Shown in pieces: positions 5,405-26,340 of a DNA stretch of 35,693 nt; within the stretch, counting starts at the first letter, position 1, and every line of letters begins with the position of its first letter. Location: the IMG/VR virus record IMGVR_UViG_3300032327_000515, positions 1-35,693 of that record, one strand, 5' to 3'. The notes under the pieces were generated by a model that did no database searches, was not told where the DNA came from, and saw only the letters and a program-made list of their open reading frames with translations. The stretch is from a virus (lineage: Duplodnaviria > Caudoviricetes). The position numbers and the translations under genes are program-made.

Positions 5405-5829
5405 TATGGCAAGAGATCGGGGAAGGCTTCTTTAACAAATTTATAAGTTAAACCTTTGACCCCTAAATTCTTGCTCAAAATACCAATAATAACTTCTGCT
5501 TCACGGGGTTCAATAGATTCTAATAGTTGTAATAATAATTGATTCCGTTTTTCTGCTGTTAATACTTCGGCAGCAGGATTTCCTTTTTGAAACAAATACA
5601 ATTTACGCAATTGTGTTGATAATGTTTGTGGTGAAAGTCCAGGTAACATATCTGTCGGTATTTTATAGTTCTCCGGCATCTCAGTAATCAACCATTCAAA
5701 ATTTGGATGGTATGCCAATTCAAATACCTGAACCAATGTTTTGGATAGATTATTTTCTATTACCTTCATTCTTTCTTGCTTATTACTAGCCAATTCAAAT
5801 TCATCAAATACTTCATAAATGTTCTTCAT
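5404..5829 (-). CDS. Conserved T4-like phage hypothetical protein
   Basis: LRKLYLF...QLLESIEPREAEVI...VKEAFPDLL; family recalled as commonly following RNase H. Confidence 0.75.
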   Translation of the reverse strand: MKNIYEVFDEFELASNKQERMKVIENNLSKTLVQVFELAYHPNFEWLITEMPENYKIPTDMLPGLSPQTLSTQLRKLYLFQKGNPAAEVLTAEKRNQLLLQLLESIEPREAEVIIGILSKNLGVKGLTYKFVKEAFPDLLP

Positions 5830-6680
5830 TAAAATTCCTCTATTACATCCATTAAATTTTTCAGTTTGTGTTCAATAAAATAATTCAGTAACTTGTTCCG
5901 TTTTGCTGGAACTGTTTCTTCAAAAGTATTTATAATCTTCTCCTTGATCTCTGTTGGAATCTGAGTTAGGTCGATAAGAACCTTATTACGAGAAAATCCT
6001 GCAACAGCATCGGCTGTCCAGTTAGAATGGGTTAACTCCTCATTCAATATCTTATCTAACACACCCTTAGTGATTGGTTTCTGACGGAGGTCACGGACAA
6101 AACAATCTGAAGGTGAGAAGATGTTTGGAATTCCGTCACCCTTGTCGCCACGGATAATCTTTTCCTTGAGTTCTAGGAGAGGGTCAACCGATTTGACATA
6201 TTTCTTTTGTGATGGATTATATTGTTTAACATTACTACCATACTGTTGTAATTGTAAGAAATCTCCGTCACTTGATAGAATCAAAATCTTTTCATGTGGC
6301 GCATGACGAGGAACTAAAGTGCCGATAATATCATCAGCTTCAGCACCTTCAACATCAATTACTTTATATGGAAAGCTTTCACGGAGTTCTTGTTTGAATT
6401 TGGCAAGCATATCAAATATCATGTGCCAATCTAAATCAGACTTCTCACGAGTTTTCTTACGGCCTGCTTTGTAAAATGGGAAATATTCTTTACGCCAATA
6501 TTTGCGATTATCACAACATAATACAATATCACCATATTCACTTTTAAAATTCTTAACATGGGTACGAATAATGTTAAGAATCATGTGACGAATTAAATGT
6601 TCATCTAATTTCCCTTTTTGGTTGGAAATCTGAGCCATAAGTCCGGCAAGTAATACTTGGTTTAAATCAATGAGAATCAT
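5829..6680 (-). CDS. rnh: T4-type RNase H (5'-3' exonuclease)
   Basis: ILIDLNQ, YWRKEYFPFYK, EADDIIG, SSDGDFLQL, GDKGDGIPN. Confidence 0.95.
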   Translation of the reverse strand: MILIDLNQVLLAGLMAQISNQKGKLDEHLIRHMILNIIRTHVKNFKSEYGDIVLCCDNRKYWRKEYFPFYKAGRKKTREKSDLDWHMIFDMLAKFKQELRESFPYKVIDVEGAEADDIIGTLVPRHAPHEKILILSSDGDFLQLQQYGSNVKQYNPSQKKYVKSVDPLLELKEKIIRGDKGDGIPNIFSPSDCFVRDLRQKPITKGVLDKILNEELTHSNWTADAVAGFSRNKVLIDLTQIPTEIKEKIINTFEETVPAKRNKLLNYFIEHKLKNLMDVIEEF

Positions 6681-14223: not shown

Positions 14224-14823
14224 TTATTTTCCTAAAATATTCAGCGCTTTTTTATAATTCTCTTCTCGCTCAGGCAAACCAATATATCCGCCATTAATCA
14301 CTTTAGTCATTTTTTTAATATCACCGACATCTGCATATGAGTTGAGTTTGTTGTTCATCCAGAAAAAGCAGGCCGCTTCAGCTGCACCTTGCTTTGTTTC
14401 CAAATGTCCTATTACATCTTCGAGGCTCATTTTAATTGAATCGGCAAAAGCTTGATAATTATACTTGCCGGTTAATTGAATTAAACCCCTACCACGATAT
14501 TTCCATCCATCTCCACTAGATTCGTCACCATTACCTAAACGATTGGCATAAACAAAATTAGCAATCATTTCAGGTTGTCTGGCATATTTATTTGCCAGTT
14601 CAGGTGTTGTAAATCTTTTTGGCCAAGTCGTAACTAGACCAGTAACACCGTAATTTAAATTTTCGATTAATTTTTGAAAATGTCCAGATTCGTGTGAACA
14701 TTGAGCAATAAATGAAGCAATCCTCTGTGGAGAGTCTATGTTATATTTAGGCAATAGATTATTTAATATTTCACACCAATCAACGGATATACCTAATTTT
14801 TTTAAAAGTTCTGGTGTAATCAT
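14224..14823 (-). CDS. Glycoside hydrolase family 19 endolysin
   Basis: FIAQCSHES, ENLNY, YRGRGLIQLTGKYNY, INGG. Confidence 0.93.
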   Translation of the reverse strand: MITPELLKKLGISVDWCEILNNLLPKYNIDSPQRIASFIAQCSHESGHFQKLIENLNYGVTGLVTTWPKRFTTPELANKYARQPEMIANFVYANRLGNGDESSGDGWKYRGRGLIQLTGKYNYQAFADSIKMSLEDVIGHLETKQGAAEAACFFWMNNKLNSYADVGDIKKMTKVINGGYIGLPEREENYKKALNILGK

Positions 14824-14826
14824 ATG

Positions 14827-15174
14827 TTATTCTTTATGTGATGGAGTTTCTTCGCCATTTGGATCTTTAATGGCTTTACCAATTAAAGCATTGGCAACCC
14901 ACGCACCCATGTAACCAACAAAATACCATTCCGAAAGTTTATCATTTGCAATAAGGTATATGAATCCCCAAGTACTAACAATCCATGCACCAAATCTACT
15001 AAATTTGCGTTCGTTTAATTTACCATTAATAGAAACCAAGTCTATAATTGAGATTGTATTCTTTTTATCTTGATTGAGTTTCCATAAAGCATAAACAGTT
15101 GTACAAAATAGTAAAGCTAAGATAATATACATTATTTCATCCGGAGTAATGTTACTATCAAATAATTGTAACAT
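14827..15174 (-). CDS. Putative holin
   Basis: 115 aa with 2-3 hydrophobic segments, between the spanin and endolysin genes. Confidence 0.55.
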   Translation of the reverse strand: MLQLFDSNITPDEIMYIILALLFCTTVYALWKLNQDKKNTISIIDLVSINGKLNERKFSRFGAWIVSTWGFIYLIANDKLSEWYFVGYMGAWVANALIGKAIKDPNGEETPSHKE

Positions 15175-15758
15175 TATTGCACACCATCAAATATTTTTTT
15201 GTTTTCTTTATACCACGATTGCCAAGCTTTTACTATCTCAACTATTTTGTAGTAGGTTGCGTTGTTGTCGTTGACTGTGTTGAGGAGTCCAGCGATTTTA
15301 ACTTCGGAGGTTCCTGTAATAGTATTGATGGTGCTGTCGGGAAGTTCATTTTGACTGGAACTGTTGAACAAGCTGACAGAAGCATTAGACAACTTGCACT
15401 CATCAGTAATATATTTGTTAATCGCAATTTTAAGTTCATTTTGTTTATCCTTAATAATTTTTTCTTTTTCAACTATATTTTCGACCAATATGGTATTCAC
15501 TTGTGCTGATTGTGTTTCAGCTCGAGCAAGTTTAGTTTCCAATTCTTTTACTTTGAGTAACCATGAATTGTTGTTACTATTAGCACCTTCAATCCAAATA
15601 CCAAATACTAATACAAGTATTGAAATGATCTGAATTGGTAACTTATACTGATTTATAAACGGTACAAAACCAAAGAACCAACTGGCAATAATACCCAACA
15701 CACCTGCAATCACCATCAGATGGATTATGAAATCGGGTAGCCAGTTTAATAACCACAT
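15174..15758 (-). CDS. Putative i-spanin (Rz-like)
   Basis: N-terminal TM segments, coiled coil, single Cys, hosts an embedded lipoprotein ORF. Confidence 0.7.
   Translation of the reverse strand: MWLLNWLPDFIIHLMVIAGVLGIIASWFFGFVPFINQYKLPIQIISILVLVFGIWIEGANSNNNSWLLKVKELETKLARAETQSAQVNTILVENIVEKEKIIKDKQNELKIAINKYITDECKLSNASVSLFNSSSQNELPDSTINTITGTSEVKIAGLLNTVNDNNATYYKIVEIVKAWQSWYKENKKIFDGVQ
15242..15439 (-). CDS. Putative o-spanin (Rz1-like lipoprotein) embedded in an alternative frame
   Basis: MNLKLRLTNILLMSASCLMLLSA-C lipobox followed by Pro-rich STVPVKMNFPTAPSILLQEPPKL; exact start uncertain. Confidence 0.7.
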   Translation of the reverse strand: MNLKLRLTNILLMSASCLMLLSACSTVPVKMNFPTAPSILLQEPPKLKSLDSSTQSTTTTQPTTK

Positions 15759-16018
15759 TATTGTGGAAGTTTTCTTTTAAAGGTTGGTGCCATTATAGGA
15801 TTTCTCTTTTTGGACACACCAGGTTCGCCACCTTTACCACCAGTACCTGCGATAGCACCACTACCTACATTATTTGTTGGTGCACCTACTGCGCCGGAAC
15901 TCATTCCATCTTCTGTGACCGGTACACAATCAGGTACCATACGATTACCTTTTTTCTTCAAGCCTTTGGCTGTGTATCCAGTCCAACATGCTTCAGTATA
16001 TTGTTTAAATGTTTTCAT
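15758..16018 (-). CDS. Putative internal head protein
   Basis: MKTFKQYTE N-terminus; CWTGY...KKKGNRMVPDCVP module; Gly-rich tail. Confidence 0.7.
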   Translation of the reverse strand: MKTFKQYTEACWTGYTAKGLKKKGNRMVPDCVPVTEDGMSSGAVGAPTNNVGSGAIAGTGGKGGEPGVSKKRNPIMAPTFKRKLPQ

Positions 16019-16602
16019 TAGCAGTTCCATTTTCTTAGTGCTAAGGCTTTACGAGTGGGTTCACCATTAGGTTTTTTCATAGCACCTTCCATACCACCCA
16101 TGCGAGCACAAAATGATTTTCTACGATTGGCTGCTTTAGAACCAGGTTTTAACTTTGATGGCGGTGTTGTTACTGCCATTGCTAATTTTGAACCTGGATT
16201 TTCTCTACGGTAGGAAGCAATACCTTTACGATTTAAACCACCCTTAGGATCTTTACCTGCTTTTCTTTGCCAAGCGGCAGATTCTTCTATTAAATCTTCA
16301 TCACTTACTGATTCCAACCTCTCCCAAAGCAATTCAGAATCTATATTGTATTCAGATGCAGCAGCTTCAATCATTTCTTCAATAACATCAAATAATTCTT
16401 CCAGTTCAACTTCTTCTGTTCTCCAACCACCACCCATTGCTTTGTATTTCTTTGAAGCCCAACCATTTGCATAAGCGGAAGGATAAACTGCAAATTTTGA
16501 TTTAGCAGCTGATTTTGCTCGAGCCCATTTTTCTGGACTAGTAGGAACATTTTTTTCTTCTAAGTTTTGAATTTCTTCTACAAATTGTTTAAATGATTTC
16601 AT
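16018..16602 (-). CDS. Putative internal head protein (two basic modules separated by an acidic linker)
   Basis: MKSFKQFVEE; YPSAYANGW module; AAWQRKAGK...RRKSFCARM...LRKWNC module. Confidence 0.75.
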   Translation of the reverse strand: MKSFKQFVEEIQNLEEKNVPTSPEKWARAKSAAKSKFAVYPSAYANGWASKKYKAMGGGWRTEEVELEELFDVIEEMIEAAASEYNIDSELLWERLESVSDEDLIEESAAWQRKAGKDPKGGLNRKGIASYRRENPGSKLAMAVTTPPSKLKPGSKAANRRKSFCARMGGMEGAMKKPNGEPTRKALALRKWNC

Positions 16603-17060
16603 TACTTATTACCTACGTTTTCTGTTCTAACATTAATTGGAGCTCCACGGCGTTCTGGATTAGGATCTTCTCTGCGTTTTCTTTGAGCTGCACTTGCACG
16701 AGCCTCTTTGCCAATTGCATGAGCTTTGGCTTGAGGTAAACATTTTGGTTTACCTTCTCCCGGATCTCTAGCACAGTCACCTTTAATATTACCTTTGGTG
16801 TCCATCCGAACCCACTTCTGTTTAAACCATTTTCTTAAATCTTCATCTAAATTCTGTTTAATCCAATCATCCGGAGTTTTTCCATGTTTAGATACAAAAT
16901 CATCATGTAAATCTTTACCGGTAATATTACCTTTTTTAGATATGTCCATCATTAGCTTATTAATTGATTCATAACTATGACTATCCAATTTCTTCAAGCC
17001 TTTTTCTAAGGCCGTAACACAGCAGCAATTTTCTTCTAAGTATCGTTTGAATGATTTCAT
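16602..17060 (-). CDS. Putative internal head protein
   Basis: MKSFKRYLEE; EDLRKWFKQKWV...CAR...KPKCLP module. Confidence 0.75.
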   Translation of the reverse strand: MKSFKRYLEENCCCVTALEKGLKKLDSHSYESINKLMMDISKKGNITGKDLHDDFVSKHGKTPDDWIKQNLDEDLRKWFKQKWVRMDTKGNIKGDCARDPGEGKPKCLPQAKAHAIGKEARASAAQRKRREDPNPERRGAPINVRTENVGNK

Positions 17061-17443
17061 ATTTTTCGTAATATCTCTGCGATAGTTAAATCCACCGGTA
17101 TTTCTGTTGTTCTTATTGTTTTACCATTTATTCCTCTAATTACTTCTGGTAGAGTATTTAAATACAATAAGAAAGTTTTTAAAATGTCATAATCTCGTTC
17201 ATCTATTCTATAGAATAATATTCTGGCCGACACTTCAGGACCAAAAACATTATTCAATAGAATAATATGGTTAATGATTAATCGTTCTTTAAGAGTTTTT
17301 GTAACCTTATATCTACGAAACAACCTTTTTAGATATTTAGTTCTCTTAATATCTCCTTCAAACTCCGACATAATACAATTTGGTGATGAATAACACTTCA
17401 TCGCATACATCATAAAATTATCTTCATTCAATTCATCAAACAT
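17057..17443 (-). CDS. Conserved T4-like phage hypothetical protein
   Basis: LNEDNFMMYAMKCY...KYLKRLF...LKERLIINHIILLNNVFG. Confidence 0.8.
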   Translation of the reverse strand: MFDELNEDNFMMYAMKCYSSPNCIMSEFEGDIKRTKYLKRLFRRYKVTKTLKERLIINHIILLNNVFGPEVSARILFYRIDERDYDILKTFLLYLNTLPEVIRGINGKTIRTTEIPVDLTIAEILRKI

Positions 17444-17452
17444 AGTATATTA

Positions 17453-17818
17453 TTATTCTTTTAGTAATTCATCCAAACCATTTTCATCTGTAATAGTAGC
17501 AAATGTTTCATATTGATTAGATTCATTTAACGCATATTCATAGTAAAAATAATATTCAGATTCATTGAAAGTTAAGGCAATCACTTCTACGCCTTCCTCT
17601 AAATCAGAAAAAACAACCTTTGGCAAATTAATACCAAAGGTTGTTAGTGTCTTTGATGCTTGTGTCCAACCAGTATACGGATTTACTGAAGATTCACTTA
17701 AACAAATATCAAGCAATTCGTTTATTTGTTCGTATGTATCATTTACTTCTTCAGAAATGGAAACAACTTTTAAATCATTTCCAATTTCTTTAGAAATATA
17801 ATGACGAAACTCAATCAT
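17453..17818 (-). CDS. Hypothetical acidic protein
   Basis: 121 aa; MIEFRHYISKE N-terminus. Confidence 0.7.
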   Translation of the reverse strand: MIEFRHYISKEIGNDLKVVSISEEVNDTYEQINELLDICLSESSVNPYTGWTQASKTLTTFGINLPKVVFSDLEEGVEVIALTFNESEYYFYYEYALNESNQYETFATITDENGLDELLKE

Positions 17819-21842: not shown

Positions 21843-23738
21843 TTATTCTCCGGTTTTCTTCTTTTTCTTAATGGTCGTTACTTCTAATGCTTTAATTTTC
21901 ATGTCTGATGTTGTGCTCATCGGTTCTTTATTCGATGCACCACCTAATGTTCCACCTACACCCATATCACAGGCACCTGGATCATCGATAGCTTCTTTTA
22001 CTTTTCTAAACTTCTTAAACTCTTTTTTAGTACCATAATCACTACTCAAAGTATTAGGTGATCCACCTGAAGGCATTGCCGTGCTGGCAGGATTTGCATT
22101 ACTAAATTCTTCACTCTCACTATATGTTTGGTTACCCAAACCAGCACCACCTGTTAAACCTGAACCGTTTGTTCTTGTATTCCACTCTGAACCCAAAGAT
22201 GATGGTGGTTCATTACGAGGAACCCCTAAAGATTTATCACCTCTTTTTAATCTTTTTTCTTTGTCGTTATCTTTGCTGAAGTTGGTTTCTTTTGGCTCGG
22301 ACGTGGCTTGGAGGATTTGACCTTCTGCGTAGACGCCGGCGTTTTGGCCGAACGTGTAGGTTTTACCGTTGGGGTTTTTTCTTGGGAAGGTATTTCCTTT
22401 GATTTCGTCTCCGTTACTGGTTTCACCAGGTCTGTTGTCTGGAGTGGCGTCTGCTGGCCCTCTTGACCGTAAATTGTTATTAATGTCGATTTTAAGAAAT
22501 CGGTTATACGTTTTAACATTTTTTTCTTCTTTAAATAATGAATTAACATTCAATTGTTTTCTACGATTCAACCAATCTTCGGCTGTTTCTCCAAAAGTGT
22601 TCGAATCTAAAAAATTCTTTGTGGATTCATACACTTCACCAATATCTTCTTCTTTACTATCTAGGTCACCAGTATTATCAAATTCAATAAAGGTTTTAAA
22701 TGACTCGGTGAAATATTTAGTATTCCTTTGCGATTTAGACCATTTGTCCTGACGGATTGATTCTACCATCATTCTAGATAATAATGAATTTCTTTCTTTA
22801 CTGACTTCATTGGTGGTATTGACGAAAACCATCATGGTTTCATATCCTAACTCTTCCAATTCTTCTTTAATATAAGAAAGTCTGGTTTTATCATCAGCAG
22901 GTCCATTAATAATCAAAGGACCACGGTTACGAATACCTTCTCTACGTAAATCATTAGTTTTCTCCGACAACTTTCGTTTATCAGCCAAATACTCCTGTGC
23001 TTGTACAAAATTGAGTTCTACAATACGAGATTCTGCAATGGCTTCACGGATGATAATATCTTTACCTGAACCCGGACCACCAGTTACAAAGATTGCACAG
23101 AATTTACCACGGTTGAAATCCTCATGTAAACCCATACCCTTACGAGTATCTTGCATAAGTTCTTTTGCGTGTTTATCTGAAACGTGGTCAGGAACACCCT
23201 TACGAAACTCTCCAAAATTATTATTTTTAGCGTGTTCTCTCATTTTGGTACCAGACATACCTTCAGAACCTTCAGAATCAGGATCTCTCTGGCCAGCAGA
23301 ATGAACAGTAATTTTCTTGAAATGATATGGTACACGACCTTCTTTATTTGGTTTACCATTATATTTGTTTAGAGAATCTTTAAATTCTTTAACACGGTCG
23401 GAACCAACAACTACATGAAGATGTGTTACACCTTGGTTATGTAACTTTTCCGCATGTTGAAAAATAGATGGATGTTCTTTTGTGGAGGATTCAATATTTG
23501 TACCAGGTGAATATCTTTGTAAATGTTTTACTTTTTGTTTACCGGACAAAGGATTCTTTTTACCATCTTGTGAATGTGAAACAATAATGTGGTGTGAACC
23601 ACCAACTCTAGCCGCAACTTCCTTAACCTTATCAATTACTTTTAAATGGCCCGTGGTTGGAGGATTCATGCGACCAAAGGTCATCACGGCATGTTTGCCG
23701 GATTCTTTTTCTTCGACTAGTTCTAAAAAACTTTTCAT
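21843..23738 (-). CDS. Nucleotidyltransferase (HIGH/TxGH class) fused to a P-loop kinase-like domain with disordered tail
   Basis: FGRMNPPTTGH, VVGSDR, MSGTKMR; then FVTGGPGSGKD Walker A; N-terminal MKSFLELVEE. Confidence 0.85.
   Translation of the reverse strand: MKSFLELVEEKESGKHAVMTFGRMNPPTTGHLKVIDKVKEVAARVGGSHHIIVSHSQDGKKNPLSGKQKVKHLQRYSPGTNIESSTKEHPSIFQHAEKLHNQGVTHLHVVVGSDRVKEFKDSLNKYNGKPNKEGRVPYHFKKITVHSAGQRDPDSEGSEGMSGTKMREHAKNNNFGEFRKGVPDHVSDKHAKELMQDTRKGMGLHEDFNRGKFCAIFVTGGPGSGKDIIIREAIAESRIVELNFVQAQEYLADKRKLSEKTNDLRREGIRNRGPLIINGPADDKTRLSYIKEELEELGYETMMVFVNTTNEVSKERNSLLSRMMVESIRQDKWSKSQRNTKYFTESFKTFIEFDNTGDLDSKEEDIGEVYESTKNFLDSNTFGETAEDWLNRRKQLNVNSLFKEEKNVKTYNRFLKIDINNNLRSRGPADATPDNRPGETSNGDEIKGNTFPRKNPNGKTYTFGQNAGVYAEGQILQATSEPKETNFSKDNDKEKRLKRGDKSLGVPRNEPPSSLGSEWNTRTNGSGLTGGAGLGNQTYSESEEFSNANPASTAMPSGGSPNTLSSDYGTKKEFKKFRKVKEAIDDPGACDMGVGGTLGGASNKEPMSTTSDMKIKALEVTTIKKKKKTGE
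22247..22519 (-). CDS. Putative overprinted Lys/Thr/Pro/Ser-rich protein (90 aa) nested in +1 frame
   Basis: MLKRITDFLKSTL...KPTSAKITTKKKD; host-frame codons end in C in about 36 of 91 codons here versus about 2 of the next 50 (hand count). Confidence 0.6.
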   Translation of the reverse strand: MLKRITDFLKSTLITIYGQEGQQTPLQTTDLVKPVTETKSKEIPSQEKTPTVKPTRSAKTPASTQKVKSSKPRPSQKKPTSAKITTKKKD

Positions 23739-23741
23739 ATT

Positions 23742-25145
23742 TTAATGTGAGTATGCTGGAGTTACATTCCAGTTTGATGTATTGGATTTCAAAGCGTTAC
23801 TATTAGTTTTTGGTCTATAATGTGCTAAAGCTGTATGTGAACCGTCTTTTTCAACCTTATGTAGCGTTACTGTGGCACCGTTTCTAGAAACTGCATATTT
23901 TGTTTTTTTACTATTAAATACTTTGTTTAGTGGATGTTCACTTCCCGGTGTAACTGTTGCTTTAGTTTTTTGCTTAGTGTCACCTTTTACACTCACTTTA
24001 GACCAAGGCATTTTGGTTTTCGGCGTTAAATGATGACTTAATAATTTACCAACCATTCTATGACCTTCGTCACCGACATTATGTAATAAGTGGTGGATGT
24101 GGTCATGTAATTCTCTTGCTGTATCAGCATGAACCGGTCTTGTTAATTCGTTTGCCTTTTTTTCAATAGAAGAATGATTGTCAACACCTTCTTTTTTTCT
24201 AACTGAGTCAATTAGTCGTCCTCTTTCAACTGCAGACTTATCTCCGTGTCCCATTTCATTATGTACTTTTGTCAAACCTTCTCTAGCAACTTTTTCTGTT
24301 CCTAATTTTCTTGTGGGGTGATCCAATGTATTATCAAAGTGAATTGCTGGATTTTTTGCAGTGATTGTTTTTTGTTTTTCGGAAGATTTTAATGAAAAAC
24401 CTTCATGTTGTATTTCATGTCCTTCACCAAAAGACTCTTTTAAATGTCCTGGAACATAAGAACTGACACTAACATCCGATGGATTAGTTTGGTCATCATT
24501 ATATTTTCCTTTAGTGAATTTTCCAATATCACCATTCTTAGCTGTGTGTCCCACAGAAGCAATTCTAACATTCGGTCCGTGCTTTTGTTTTAACGTTTCT
24601 AGTATAGCATCAGCTGCTACTTTTCCGTGATGTTCACGAACTTGAGCTTGAGATTTTTGTTTTGGGTTTATTGCATATTTCTTTTTAATATCATCAATTG
24701 CTTTTTTATGTGGAGCTATATCATTCTTATGTTCTTCTGATCCATAAGATCCATGTTGTGCGTGCATATGGTGAATTAGATGGACAATGGTTGAATGTTC
24801 TGTTATTTTTCCGGCCGGATCACCAAGAAGTCCTTTTTCTTTTATTTCTGCTTCATGTAATTCTTGTTCATCATCATCGTGGCCGGATTTTTCTAAATCT
24901 TTTTTGGTTGGTTCATTTGTATTATGATCCCAATGTACCAATTTTGTTATACCATGTAAATTCTTATTGAAGAAAACTGCATGTTTACCATTAGGATTAT
25001 TAAAAACGTGCACATCAACTTTATGACCATCTTTTGTTGAATATGTGTGGAAAGGTTTTAAACTAGAAAAATCATGGTCATCACCAAAATTTTCTTGAAT
25101 AGGAACAATGTAAGATTCTTTTAACCAACTTTTAAATTTTTTCAT
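23742..25145 (-). CDS. His-rich protein with possible PD-(D/E)XK nuclease-like core
   Basis: MKKFKSWLKE; E...NPSDVSV...GFSLK...KN. Confidence 0.6.
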   Translation of the reverse strand: MKKFKSWLKESYIVPIQENFGDDHDFSSLKPFHTYSTKDGHKVDVHVFNNPNGKHAVFFNKNLHGITKLVHWDHNTNEPTKKDLEKSGHDDDEQELHEAEIKEKGLLGDPAGKITEHSTIVHLIHHMHAQHGSYGSEEHKNDIAPHKKAIDDIKKKYAINPKQKSQAQVREHHGKVAADAILETLKQKHGPNVRIASVGHTAKNGDIGKFTKGKYNDDQTNPSDVSVSSYVPGHLKESFGEGHEIQHEGFSLKSSEKQKTITAKNPAIHFDNTLDHPTRKLGTEKVAREGLTKVHNEMGHGDKSAVERGRLIDSVRKKEGVDNHSSIEKKANELTRPVHADTARELHDHIHHLLHNVGDEGHRMVGKLLSHHLTPKTKMPWSKVSVKGDTKQKTKATVTPGSEHPLNKVFNSKKTKYAVSRNGATVTLHKVEKDGSHTALAHYRPKTNSNALKSNTSNWNVTPAYSH

Positions 25146-25855
25146 TTTGCAAACCTTGGATTGTTTAAAATTGCATTTGAAACTTTAACTGGAACCAACT
25201 TAGTAGTAGGTCTCATTTTGCCTTCTTTATCTTTCTTTTGGAGAACAATACCTTCACCCGCAGATTTCTTACCATCAATACTTGTTTCCATGTCAGGATG
25301 TTTAACACCCCTCAATACATGTTCGGTGGCTTGACCCAAATGATGGCGAATATCCAAAGACCGTTGAAAATGATGAGCATTTTTATCAACATGATCTGAT
25401 AGTGATTTAAATTTTGATTTGGTTTTTTCTTGGCCGGCCGCAGTTTTTAATTTTCCAGCAGCTTTTTCACCTTCGTCATGTAAATGTTTTTTATATCCTT
25501 CAACAGAAGCAGTTTCACCACGGCGAGTGGTCCTATTTAAATAGGTAGTAAAATGGCCACCTTTTTTGGCGTCAATGTGTTCTGGAGTTAAATGGTGTGT
25601 AGTATGATTCTTCATTAATGCTTCAGCAGCATTAAGATGGTGTTCCGTTGCATCTCTATCTTCTTTTGAATATGTAGAAGGTTCTGCTTTATATTCATGT
25701 TGTGGAACAAATACGTTTTTACTGGGTTTCAAAGCACCTTTGGTAACACCATGTGCTACGCCATGAGTTATTTCTGTATGTACAGCAATTCCTAGTGGAG
25801 CATCAGTTTTTGCTTTGTAAGTAATTCTATTAGGTGTTGTGGTCGTTGTGGTCAT
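25142..25855 (-). CDS. C-terminal part of a DUF6267-like (ligase-fold) protein
   Basis: TPNRITY, GIAVHT, EGIV, KLV. Confidence 0.65.
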   Translation of the reverse strand: MTTTTTTPNRITYKAKTDAPLGIAVHTEITHGVAHGVTKGALKPSKNVFVPQHEYKAEPSTYSKEDRDATEHHLNAAEALMKNHTTHHLTPEHIDAKKGGHFTTYLNRTTRRGETASVEGYKKHLHDEGEKAAGKLKTAAGQEKTKSKFKSLSDHVDKNAHHFQRSLDIRHHLGQATEHVLRGVKHPDMETSIDGKKSAGEGIVLQKKDKEGKMRPTTKLVPVKVSNAILNNPRFAK

Positions 25856-26286
25856 GATTTTGTTCCTGGTTCTACTGGAGTATGTAGCAAATCTCCCTGG
25901 ACATGATGGCCTTTATTAACAAATTCGTGGCCGTGTTTTAATAGATGTTTTAATGATGTTGCATATTCTGGCTGGTGACCAAAATGTTTATCAATTTCCT
26001 CTGGAGTTCTAGCAATAACTCCTCTAGCAATACGATGTTTATCAGAAACACCAACACCTTTATCATCATGAATCACATGAACAGAGGCACCACCATCAGT
26101 TTTTAAAGATGCTCCAACGGTACTTGGTTTACCCATACGTTTTTTATGAAACTGTCTAAGTAAATCTAAAGCCATCTGACCATGTTTAGGATCTTCGTGA
26201 GGCAAGTCTTTTGTATGCGTAAGATGACCAAGCATCTCATCGTCAACAGACGTTGCTTCGGTTAAAAAAGACTTAAATGATAACAT
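25852..26286 (-). CDS. N-terminal part of a DUF6267-like (ligase-fold) protein
   Basis: MLSFKSFLTE; HLTHxxD, KTDG, QGDL. Confidence 0.65.
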   Translation of the reverse strand: MLSFKSFLTEATSVDDEMLGHLTHTKDLPHEDPKHGQMALDLLRQFHKKRMGKPSTVGASLKTDGGASVHVIHDDKGVGVSDKHRIARGVIARTPEEIDKHFGHQPEYATSLKHLLKHGHEFVNKGHHVQGDLLHTPVEPGTKS

Positions 26287-26332: not shown

Positions 26333-26340
26333 TATTTATA
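26333..26340 (-). promoter_or_regulatory. T4-type late promoter
   Basis: Exact TATAAATA in an intergenic gap at the head of the putative head-protein block. Confidence 0.85.

Follow-up and report, generated by a model that had tools for sequence, protein, structure and literature searches.

To our knowledge, the well-supported fully nested genes of large tailed phages are mostly spanins; T4 also has a small basic protein of this nested +1 kind, the product of gene 30.3'. The embedded o-spanins, such as lambda Rz1 in Rz, are short, Pro-rich +1-frame proteins that lie within a longer phage gene and are missed by gene callers (PMC6139136). Here we describe a 90-codon open reading frame (ORF) nested in the +1 frame of a nucleotidyltransferase-kinase gene, hereafter the host gene, of a tailed virus of the Caudoviricetes (IMG/VR record IMGVR_UViG_3300032327_000515, positions 1 to 35,693; this whole stretch of 35,693 nucleotides (nt) is called the window). 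The nested ORF is, with high probability, a real gene; embedded +1 phage genes are already known (PMC6139136), and the function discussed below is read from sequence. Its product is likewise short and Pro-rich. It differs from the o-spanins in that it has no lipobox, that its host is an enzyme and not a spanin partner, and that it has a candidate promoter of its own; its host gene is also different from that of gene 30.3'. Three further systems resemble its predicted layout. Bacillus subtilis Noc brings DNA to the membrane through a conserved amphipathic helix, short and N-terminal, with a variable spacer behind it (PMC4331003); however, Noc is folded, is a paralogue of ParB and recognises specific sites in DNA, whereas the nested protein has a disordered basic tail only. 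The Pseudomonas putida phasin PhaF is mostly disordered, binds a hydrophobic surface by an N-terminal amphipathic helix and DNA by its C-terminal part (PMC3574117), but it has a long helix and a leucine zipper, and no sequence match to PhaF was found. The internal head proteins of T4 are likewise late and basic with a short N-terminal targeting segment, and the host gene and its neighbours carry such leaders; the nested protein differs in lacking the Glu cleavage position. No description of the nested ORF, or of the free-standing family presented below, was found in the literature searched, most subscription journals and supplements lying outside the search.

A first-pass annotation, made from the letters of the window alone, had proposed a 90-codon +1-frame ORF inside the nucleotidyltransferase-kinase gene, together with a switch of the host frame to C-ending codons that reverts past the nested stop. 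Both were found as described (Table 1). The ORF encodes an amphipathic helix (about residues 1-13), a Thr/Pro/Ser/Gln linker and a Lys-rich tail; a second in-frame ATG lies 10 codons farther upstream, at 22549. Within the overlap, 36 of 92 host codons have C at the third position (C3), against 2 of the 50 directly after it; C-ending codons number 49/406 before the overlap and 10/134 after it. The sliding-window check of third-position C placed the overlap at the top of 1684 windows of 60 codons in the 44 genes of the window (z 8.4). The second-ranked excess (z 6.5) is a nested o-spanin with the same C3 signature, which serves as an internal positive control. The C3 scan, which finds both the nested ORF and the nested spanin, is an inexpensive way to detect genes hidden in the AT-rich genomes of phages. 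Because a +1 stop can arise only from a host codon that has T in the middle, avoidance of stop codons cannot account for the bias; we attribute the C-rich third positions of the host frame to selection on the nested residues, for Thr, Pro and Ser over Ile, Leu and Phe in the nested linker. A contig from run X1, possibly the source of this DNA, covers the stretch with 0 differences and 0 gaps, and there is therefore no sign of an assembly frameshift.

Table 1. Coordinates of the nested ORF, its signals and its host gene in the window.
Feature	Position	Strand	Basis
Nested +1-frame ORF, 90 codons/90 amino acids	22247..22519	-	sequence, conserved ATG and open frame, stop depletion, helix
Codons 1-13 of the nested ORF, cationic amphipathic helix	22481..22519	-	residue-level selection, AlphaFold
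Ribosome-binding-site position, AAAGAAG (closest relative L001: AAGGAAG)	22526..22532	-	duplex energy
Candidate late promoter within the host kinase coding sequence, CTAAATA, with the nested ATG 194 nt downstream	22714..22720	-	motif and recoding
Host gene, 631 amino acids	21843..23738	-	PF01467, phrog_3041 'cytidyltransferase'
TATAAATA, consensus of T4-type late promoters, at the head of the block with the host gene	26333..26340	-	motif match

Conservation of the nested frame was assessed in homologues of the host gene. Three scans yielded 80+3, 65 and 80 loci. Extraction gave 182 distinct genes, and once the 16 that were truncated had been set aside, 121 were left at <95% identity. A gene counted as ORF-positive if it had an ATG no more than four codons away and 60 or more open codons, C3 not being used to classify; the ratios of ORF-positive to ORF-negative genes are not prevalences, because the query of the third scan was enriched for ORF-negative genes. 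Frequent +1 stops or loss of the ATG in homologues had been named as evidence that would speak against the gene: 94 of the 121 genes keep both the ATG, at the same column, and the open frame (72-128 stop-free codons, host C3 0.33-0.58), whereas 27 have 1-7 stops and a C3 of 0.02-0.27, which is background. In these 27 genes the C bias, the ATG, the ribosome site and the open frame disappear together. Among the first 49 non-redundant homologues the aligned ATG was present in 47 (one was cut by a contig end), the N-terminal pattern recurred and the end was Lys-rich. The nested ATG is invariant over nine different host dipeptides (n = 80). We then compared 46 full ORF-positive genes with a null in which the host protein was fixed and the codons were redrawn from the rest of each gene. 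Stops in the nested frame numbered 0, against 123 expected, and all 46 frames were open, against 2.2 expected; C3 in the overlap was 40%, against 13.5% under recoding. In the body of the nested protein, hydrophobic residues fell from 41% under the null to 11%, and Ser/Thr/Pro/Ala rose from 15% to 50%. A fixed alignment window contained 0 +1 stops in 3746 codons, and the nested stop fell at host residue 494-497 in 42/46 genes. Taken together, the conserved ATG, the open frame and the predicted stop-codon depletion against the recoding null strongly support dual coding.

The nested product had been read as an amphipathic N-terminal helix followed by a basic, histone-H1-like tail. The helix is borne out: the hydrophobic fraction at positions 2, 5, 6, 8 and 9 is 0.79-0.91, against 0.44-0.55 under recoding (n = 94), hydrophobic residues are depleted relative to the null from position 13 on, and AlphaFold predicts a helix at residues 2-17 with coil elsewhere (predicted template-modelling score 0.18; mean predicted local distance difference test (pLDDT) 81 over residues 1-10). 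With a hydrophobic moment of 0.49-0.81 (Fauchere-Pliska scale) and a net charge of +2, it fits the layout of amphipathic membrane-targeting helices of the Noc/MinD type, which are short and have basic residues beside the hydrophobic face. The tail is basic: the last 25 residues of the nested proteins have a median net charge of +9, compared with -1 for the middle and +3 for the N-terminus. Its likeness to histone H1 was not borne out: the tail is rich in Lys, Ser, Thr and Pro, without the PAKK/AAKP-type repeats of histone-H1-like bacterial proteins, and Pfam and PHROG scans of the nested protein of the window gave no match. The PHROG scan of 46 family members (A1) gave one match only (E 0.0096). 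Neither a lipobox nor a transmembrane segment was found in the nested protein; Cys is absent from the copy in the window and makes up 0.2% of the nested family. Capsid-targeting leaders are defined in PMC5694885. The T4-type leader has 10 residues and ends in Glu, for cleavage by the prohead protease; the nested helix is not a typical one, because 99% of the 111 host leaders have Glu at positions 9-11, whereas 4% of the 94 nested proteins have it at positions 9-13. HPL[DE] follows the helix in 7/94 nested proteins, over differing host residues (0.022 expected), and 84/94 have none of the short motifs tested. A profile search of 1.84 billion representatives returned 12 matches, all resembling the nested family, and the 10 that were checked are unnamed singletons; in the ESM Atlas there was no named match, and the three viral clusters that came up, all unnamed, scored 0.84-0.86, which is under the level of trust. 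In cultured phages, tblastn with the nested and free-standing proteins returned nothing useful, with one match at E=2 for the nested protein. One 242-residue database protein (P0125) has a complete nested-type sequence at its end behind an unrelated-looking N-terminal stretch, on an 836-nt contig; it is possibly a miscalled or broken frame.

Expression signals accompany the nested start across the family. Of 1909 other out-of-frame ATGs, 18% form a duplex of -3.5 kcal/mol or lower with an anti-Shine-Dalgarno core; of the 80 nested starts scored, 97% do so. The core TAAATA precedes 32/40 late tail genes of these phages; in a promoter test widened post hoc to this core and to 260 nt, after the shorter core had been seen upstream of late tail genes, it occurred upstream of 85/94 nested starts, against 32.4 expected (standard deviation 4.1). 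A control window had it in 4/92 cases, the opposite strand in 2/94 and the ORF-negative genes in 6/27 (1.7 expected). The motif clusters at host residues ~340, 370 and 395, with few copies in earlier parts of the gene; where the host peptide NTKYF occurs, all 40 ORF-positive genes with it, the window included, have the motif there (10.4 expected by recoding). CTAAATA is described as a T4-like late promoter, for phage Aeh1 (PMC1524935), and NATAAATA is described for cyanophages (PMC2984593). The association of a putative late promoter with the nested start is strong but post hoc. RNA structure at the nested start was not above that of shuffles in 4/4 tested. None of the sequencing runs listed with the stretch is an RNA run. 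Across the family, these signals make it very probable that the nested frame would be transcribed from the internal motif and translated.

The following points weigh against a selected nested gene or soften the evidence for it. The ribosome site of the window itself is weak: the purine-rich upstream stretch noted in the first-pass annotation is present, but it is one G short and lacks the GGA core of nearly all homologues, and its duplex energy of -1.8 kcal/mol compares with a family median of -6.1 and with a median of -3.2 for the 44 ORF-finder starts of the window. Translation of this copy is thus probable, though graded below that of the family. The first promoter test, for the exact consensus TATAAATA within 70 nt of the nested start, gave 0/94, and the TAAATA motif lies at three different places and is absent from 9/94 genes. 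Part of the basic tail is imposed by a conserved host motif in the other frame. The homologue counts are not independent trials, because the genes share ancestry, and the repeated loss described below means that the nested gene is not universally needed at the host site. The synonymous-site conservation that had been suggested as a check was seen in part. In 31 close ORF-positive pairs, the rate of synonymous third-position differences was 0.124 (274/2205) for the overlap, while the downstream host tail had 0.141 and the enzyme core 0.215; the overlap lay below the core in 27/31 pairs but below the tail in just 18/28 (p=0.08), and the test is therefore weaker than the core comparison suggests. 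Ten ORF-negative pairs showed no such drop (overlap-equivalent 0.188, core 0.195, tail 0.158). At the amino-acid level, the differences in the overlap were 0.139 when it is read in the host frame and 0.184 when it is read in the nested one. As a separate observation, the host tail (21843-22246 (-), residues ~500-631) has low synonymous divergence in ORF-positive and ORF-negative pairs alike, possibly through another constraint or recombination.

We asked how the ORF-negative genes arose. They sit among ORF-positive ones: a 62-row kinase tree requires no fewer than 3 changes and a 73-row tree no fewer than 4, and their grouping into one clade was rejected (approximately unbiased test, p=0.027). 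Both frames reach the base of the sampled family; the tree rooted with distant outgroups was not trusted for the root. Because the ORF-negative genes do not form one clade and the start position is a shared one, repeated loss is the simplest reading, by which the nested frame would have been lost several times. One ORF-negative record retains a remnant of the nested frame, broken by stops. The ORF-negative genes also retain a related host linker, and the host frame therefore has its own constraint. A codon-usage method exists for the relative age of overlapping frames (PMC8227390); here, codon usage outside the overlap correlates with neither frame. Of the description of the gene as overprinted, the overlap thus stands; that the nested frame is the younger is unproven, because codon usage does not tell which frame is older.

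A free-standing counterpart was found in relatives. In an ORF-negative record, an architecture scan detected a 62-residue gene of the same helix-linker-basic-tail design; it immediately follows the major capsid gene and has a late motif and a ribosome site of its own. The wider free-standing family has 513 matches, of which the 120 listed are all unnamed or hypothetical save one with the label 'monoamine oxidase'. It has no Pfam or PHROG match, and its records, mostly short fragments, show no host gene. This family (A5, A6) shares with the nested proteins the helix pattern, a linker, a basic tail and a late promoter, and in one subfamily HPLD; it differs in being an independent gene, with a Val/Ala/Glu-rich linker and, often, PAKK/AAKK repeats in the tail. 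The two N-termini agree in hydrophobic residues at 1, 2, 5, 8 and 9 and in Lys3/Lys12. HPL[DE] occurs in 24/26 aligned members of the subfamily next to the capsid gene and PYK in 94/107 free-standing proteins, and Glu occupies the leader cleavage position in 0/107. Free-standing members of 55-85 residues, late by their signals, include L234:5648-5842 (+) (in G002), L253-L255, L259 and L261, and the family also occurs in other, probably larger phages with a different gene context.

At the capsid-tail junction, the free gene was present in 4/5 ORF-negative and 0/9 ORF-positive records; at further such junctions it was found in 0/45, the nested status being readable for one of 21 records. By a filter with a recovery of 94/94 for nested and 131/134 for free proteins, the nested form alone occurs in the complete genomes G008 and G009 and in G007 (82% complete), bar one filter match without a ribosome site. 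The free form alone occurs in G011 (complete) and G002, and the complete, ORF-negative G012 has the free gene by profile. On this sequence pattern, the nested gene likely does the same job as the free-standing late gene in relatives without the nested form. That each genome would have exactly one gene for a widespread, so far undescribed late membrane-DNA tether, in two interchangeable forms, free after the capsid gene or, with a promoter and ribosome site of its own, fully nested in an unrelated virion enzyme gene, is less likely than not. Neither form was found in the ORF-negative G001, G004 and G005, which are records of 31-43% completeness; at the capsid-gene site, G001 has another gene instead. 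All four ORF-negative records that carry the free gene belong to one lineage. The A6 profile matches one nested ORF (E 2.2e-4, positions 1-68 of 72), and middle-shuffled controls score alike; hhalign of the nested and free families aligned 12 N-terminal columns with a probability of 33%, and shuffling the middle barely lowers the cross scores. Homology of the two forms is not demonstrated, since 12 columns match only and middle shuffling barely matters; with four carriers of one lineage and whole-length homology lacking, interchangeability is a hypothesis. The capsid-tail junction is itself an insertion hotspot (L269, L274, L323, L365, L367, L379), which by inspection holds homing-endonuclease-like, methyltransferase-like or leader-bearing small genes, or nothing.

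The best explanation overall, to which we give about an even chance, is a selected nested late gene for a small protein predicted to anchor in the membrane and to hold DNA. Late RNA polymerase would initiate at the internal motif within the host gene and ribosomes would start at the nested ATG; the cationic amphipathic helix would sit on the inner membrane and the lysine-rich tail would hold DNA, so that, for example, phage DNA could be kept near membrane-bound assembly sites. Noc and PhaF show that a design of this kind can work in this way. The role itself, tethering phage DNA or assembly sites to the membrane late in infection, is proposed tentatively and falls a little short of an even chance. 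The nested gene is a non-spanin, conserved across ~100 diverse uncultured T4-like phage genes and rarely called, and its losses serve as natural controls. It leads to a family that has no name, with hundreds of small late proteins of a testable membrane/DNA design, and how overlaps originate and dissolve can be tested in lineages that have the nested form, the free form or neither. If the reading of two interchangeable forms is true, the family would record the passage of a gene into an overlap or out of one, or the de novo evolution of the same protein design in a second frame.

The protein might instead be a head-internal, DNA-neutralising peptide, packaged like the T4 internal proteins, with the helix as its capsid-targeting leader. 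The late motif, a gene block rich in capsid-targeting-like leaders and the position of the free counterpart directly after the major capsid gene are in keeping with this, and lysines of T4 internal proteins contact packaged DNA (PMC3012670). However, the cleavage-position Glu of the host leaders is nearly always missing from the nested proteins and always from the free-standing ones, and the nested helix has a net charge of +2 and a mean hydrophobicity of 0.72, against -1 and 0.38 for the host leaders. We regard a head-internal role as unlikely. A lysis accessory that weakens the membrane, like the disruptin gp28, a 56-residue cationic amphipathic peptide (10.1101/515445), is improbable: the nested protein is small, cationic, amphipathic and late, and phage nested genes are often lysis genes (PMC6139136), but at 14224-15758 the window already has a nested spanin pair together with an endolysin and a small membrane protein, only ~13 of the 90 residues are amphipathic with the remainder selected to be non-hydrophobic, and the lipobox or transmembrane segment is missing. 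Slightly less probable again is an adaptor whose helix and short motif bind a protein or a non-membrane hydrophobic surface, such as a storage granule, and whose tail binds another polyanion, such as RNA or polyphosphate. PhaF does bind granules by an amphipathic helix (PMC3574117), and short motifs are conserved after the helix (HPL[DE] in the nested, PYK in the free-standing proteins), but most nested members lack the motifs tested and no partner is indicated. Programmed frameshifting into the +1 frame, giving the enzyme an alternative C-terminus, is very improbable, for although many homologues have an A-rich run before the ATG, the ATG is invariant and the run is not, the host dipeptide over the ATG varies, the Shine-Dalgarno spacing suits initiation, a separate promoter motif lies upstream and the helix begins exactly at Met. 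Equally remote is an untranslated shadow whose C bias stems from RNA structure or host codon choice: hydrophilic linkers are poor in +1 stops by construction (L082 is open in 85% of recodings) and synonymous divergence is low in the host tail too, but host-preserving recoding reproduces neither the open frames nor the C bias, the four features are lost jointly in 27 homologues that keep a related host linker, and the start has no unusual RNA fold in the 4/4 tested.

The genomic setting is that of a T4-like phage. The 35.7-kb record carries genes for ribonucleotide reductase subunits, a primase, an endolysin and spanins, and a peptidase-like gene. The host protein consists, in order, of a capsid-targeting-like leader, an HxGH nucleotidyltransferase, a P-loop kinase-like domain and a disordered tail; its AlphaFold model shows the two domains, followed by a low-confidence tail from residue 381 (pLDDT < 50 across most of residues 381-631), and its best fold matches are ATP sulfurylase-APS kinase and NadR. 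The overlap corresponds to host residues 407-497, within the predicted disordered tail. No cultured phage searched by tblastn covers 80% of the host protein, the matches being domain-wise only. The window has 4 matches to TATAAATA, against 4.7 by chance; because the count is at chance, the match at 26333..26340 is suggestive only through its place, upstream of gene 25852-26286 and heading the gene block.

At least 6 genes in 15758-17818 and 21843-26286 (-) begin with capsid-targeting-like leaders, and the host tail contains an internal look-alike of such a leader near residue 570. The nested o-spanin (15242-15403 (-)), which has a lipobox and matches phrog_456, lies in the +1 frame of an i-spanin-like gene (15174-15758 (-)); its neighbours are the endolysin (14224-14823) and the small membrane protein (14827-15174). 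Other C3 excesses were also seen. In the complete relative G008, those at L229:3153-4052, L230:9066-9953 and L225:7244-8959 (z 5.3-6.0) lie in genes whose +1 frames are partly open for 50-75 codons; these are possibly further nested ORFs or highly expressed genes. In the window, an excess of z 4.3 in 5829-6680 (-), codons ~160-220, has no open +1 or +2 frame; a 61-residue plus-strand ORF (6121-6306) overlaps it, and TATAAATA occurs at 5927-5934 (-).

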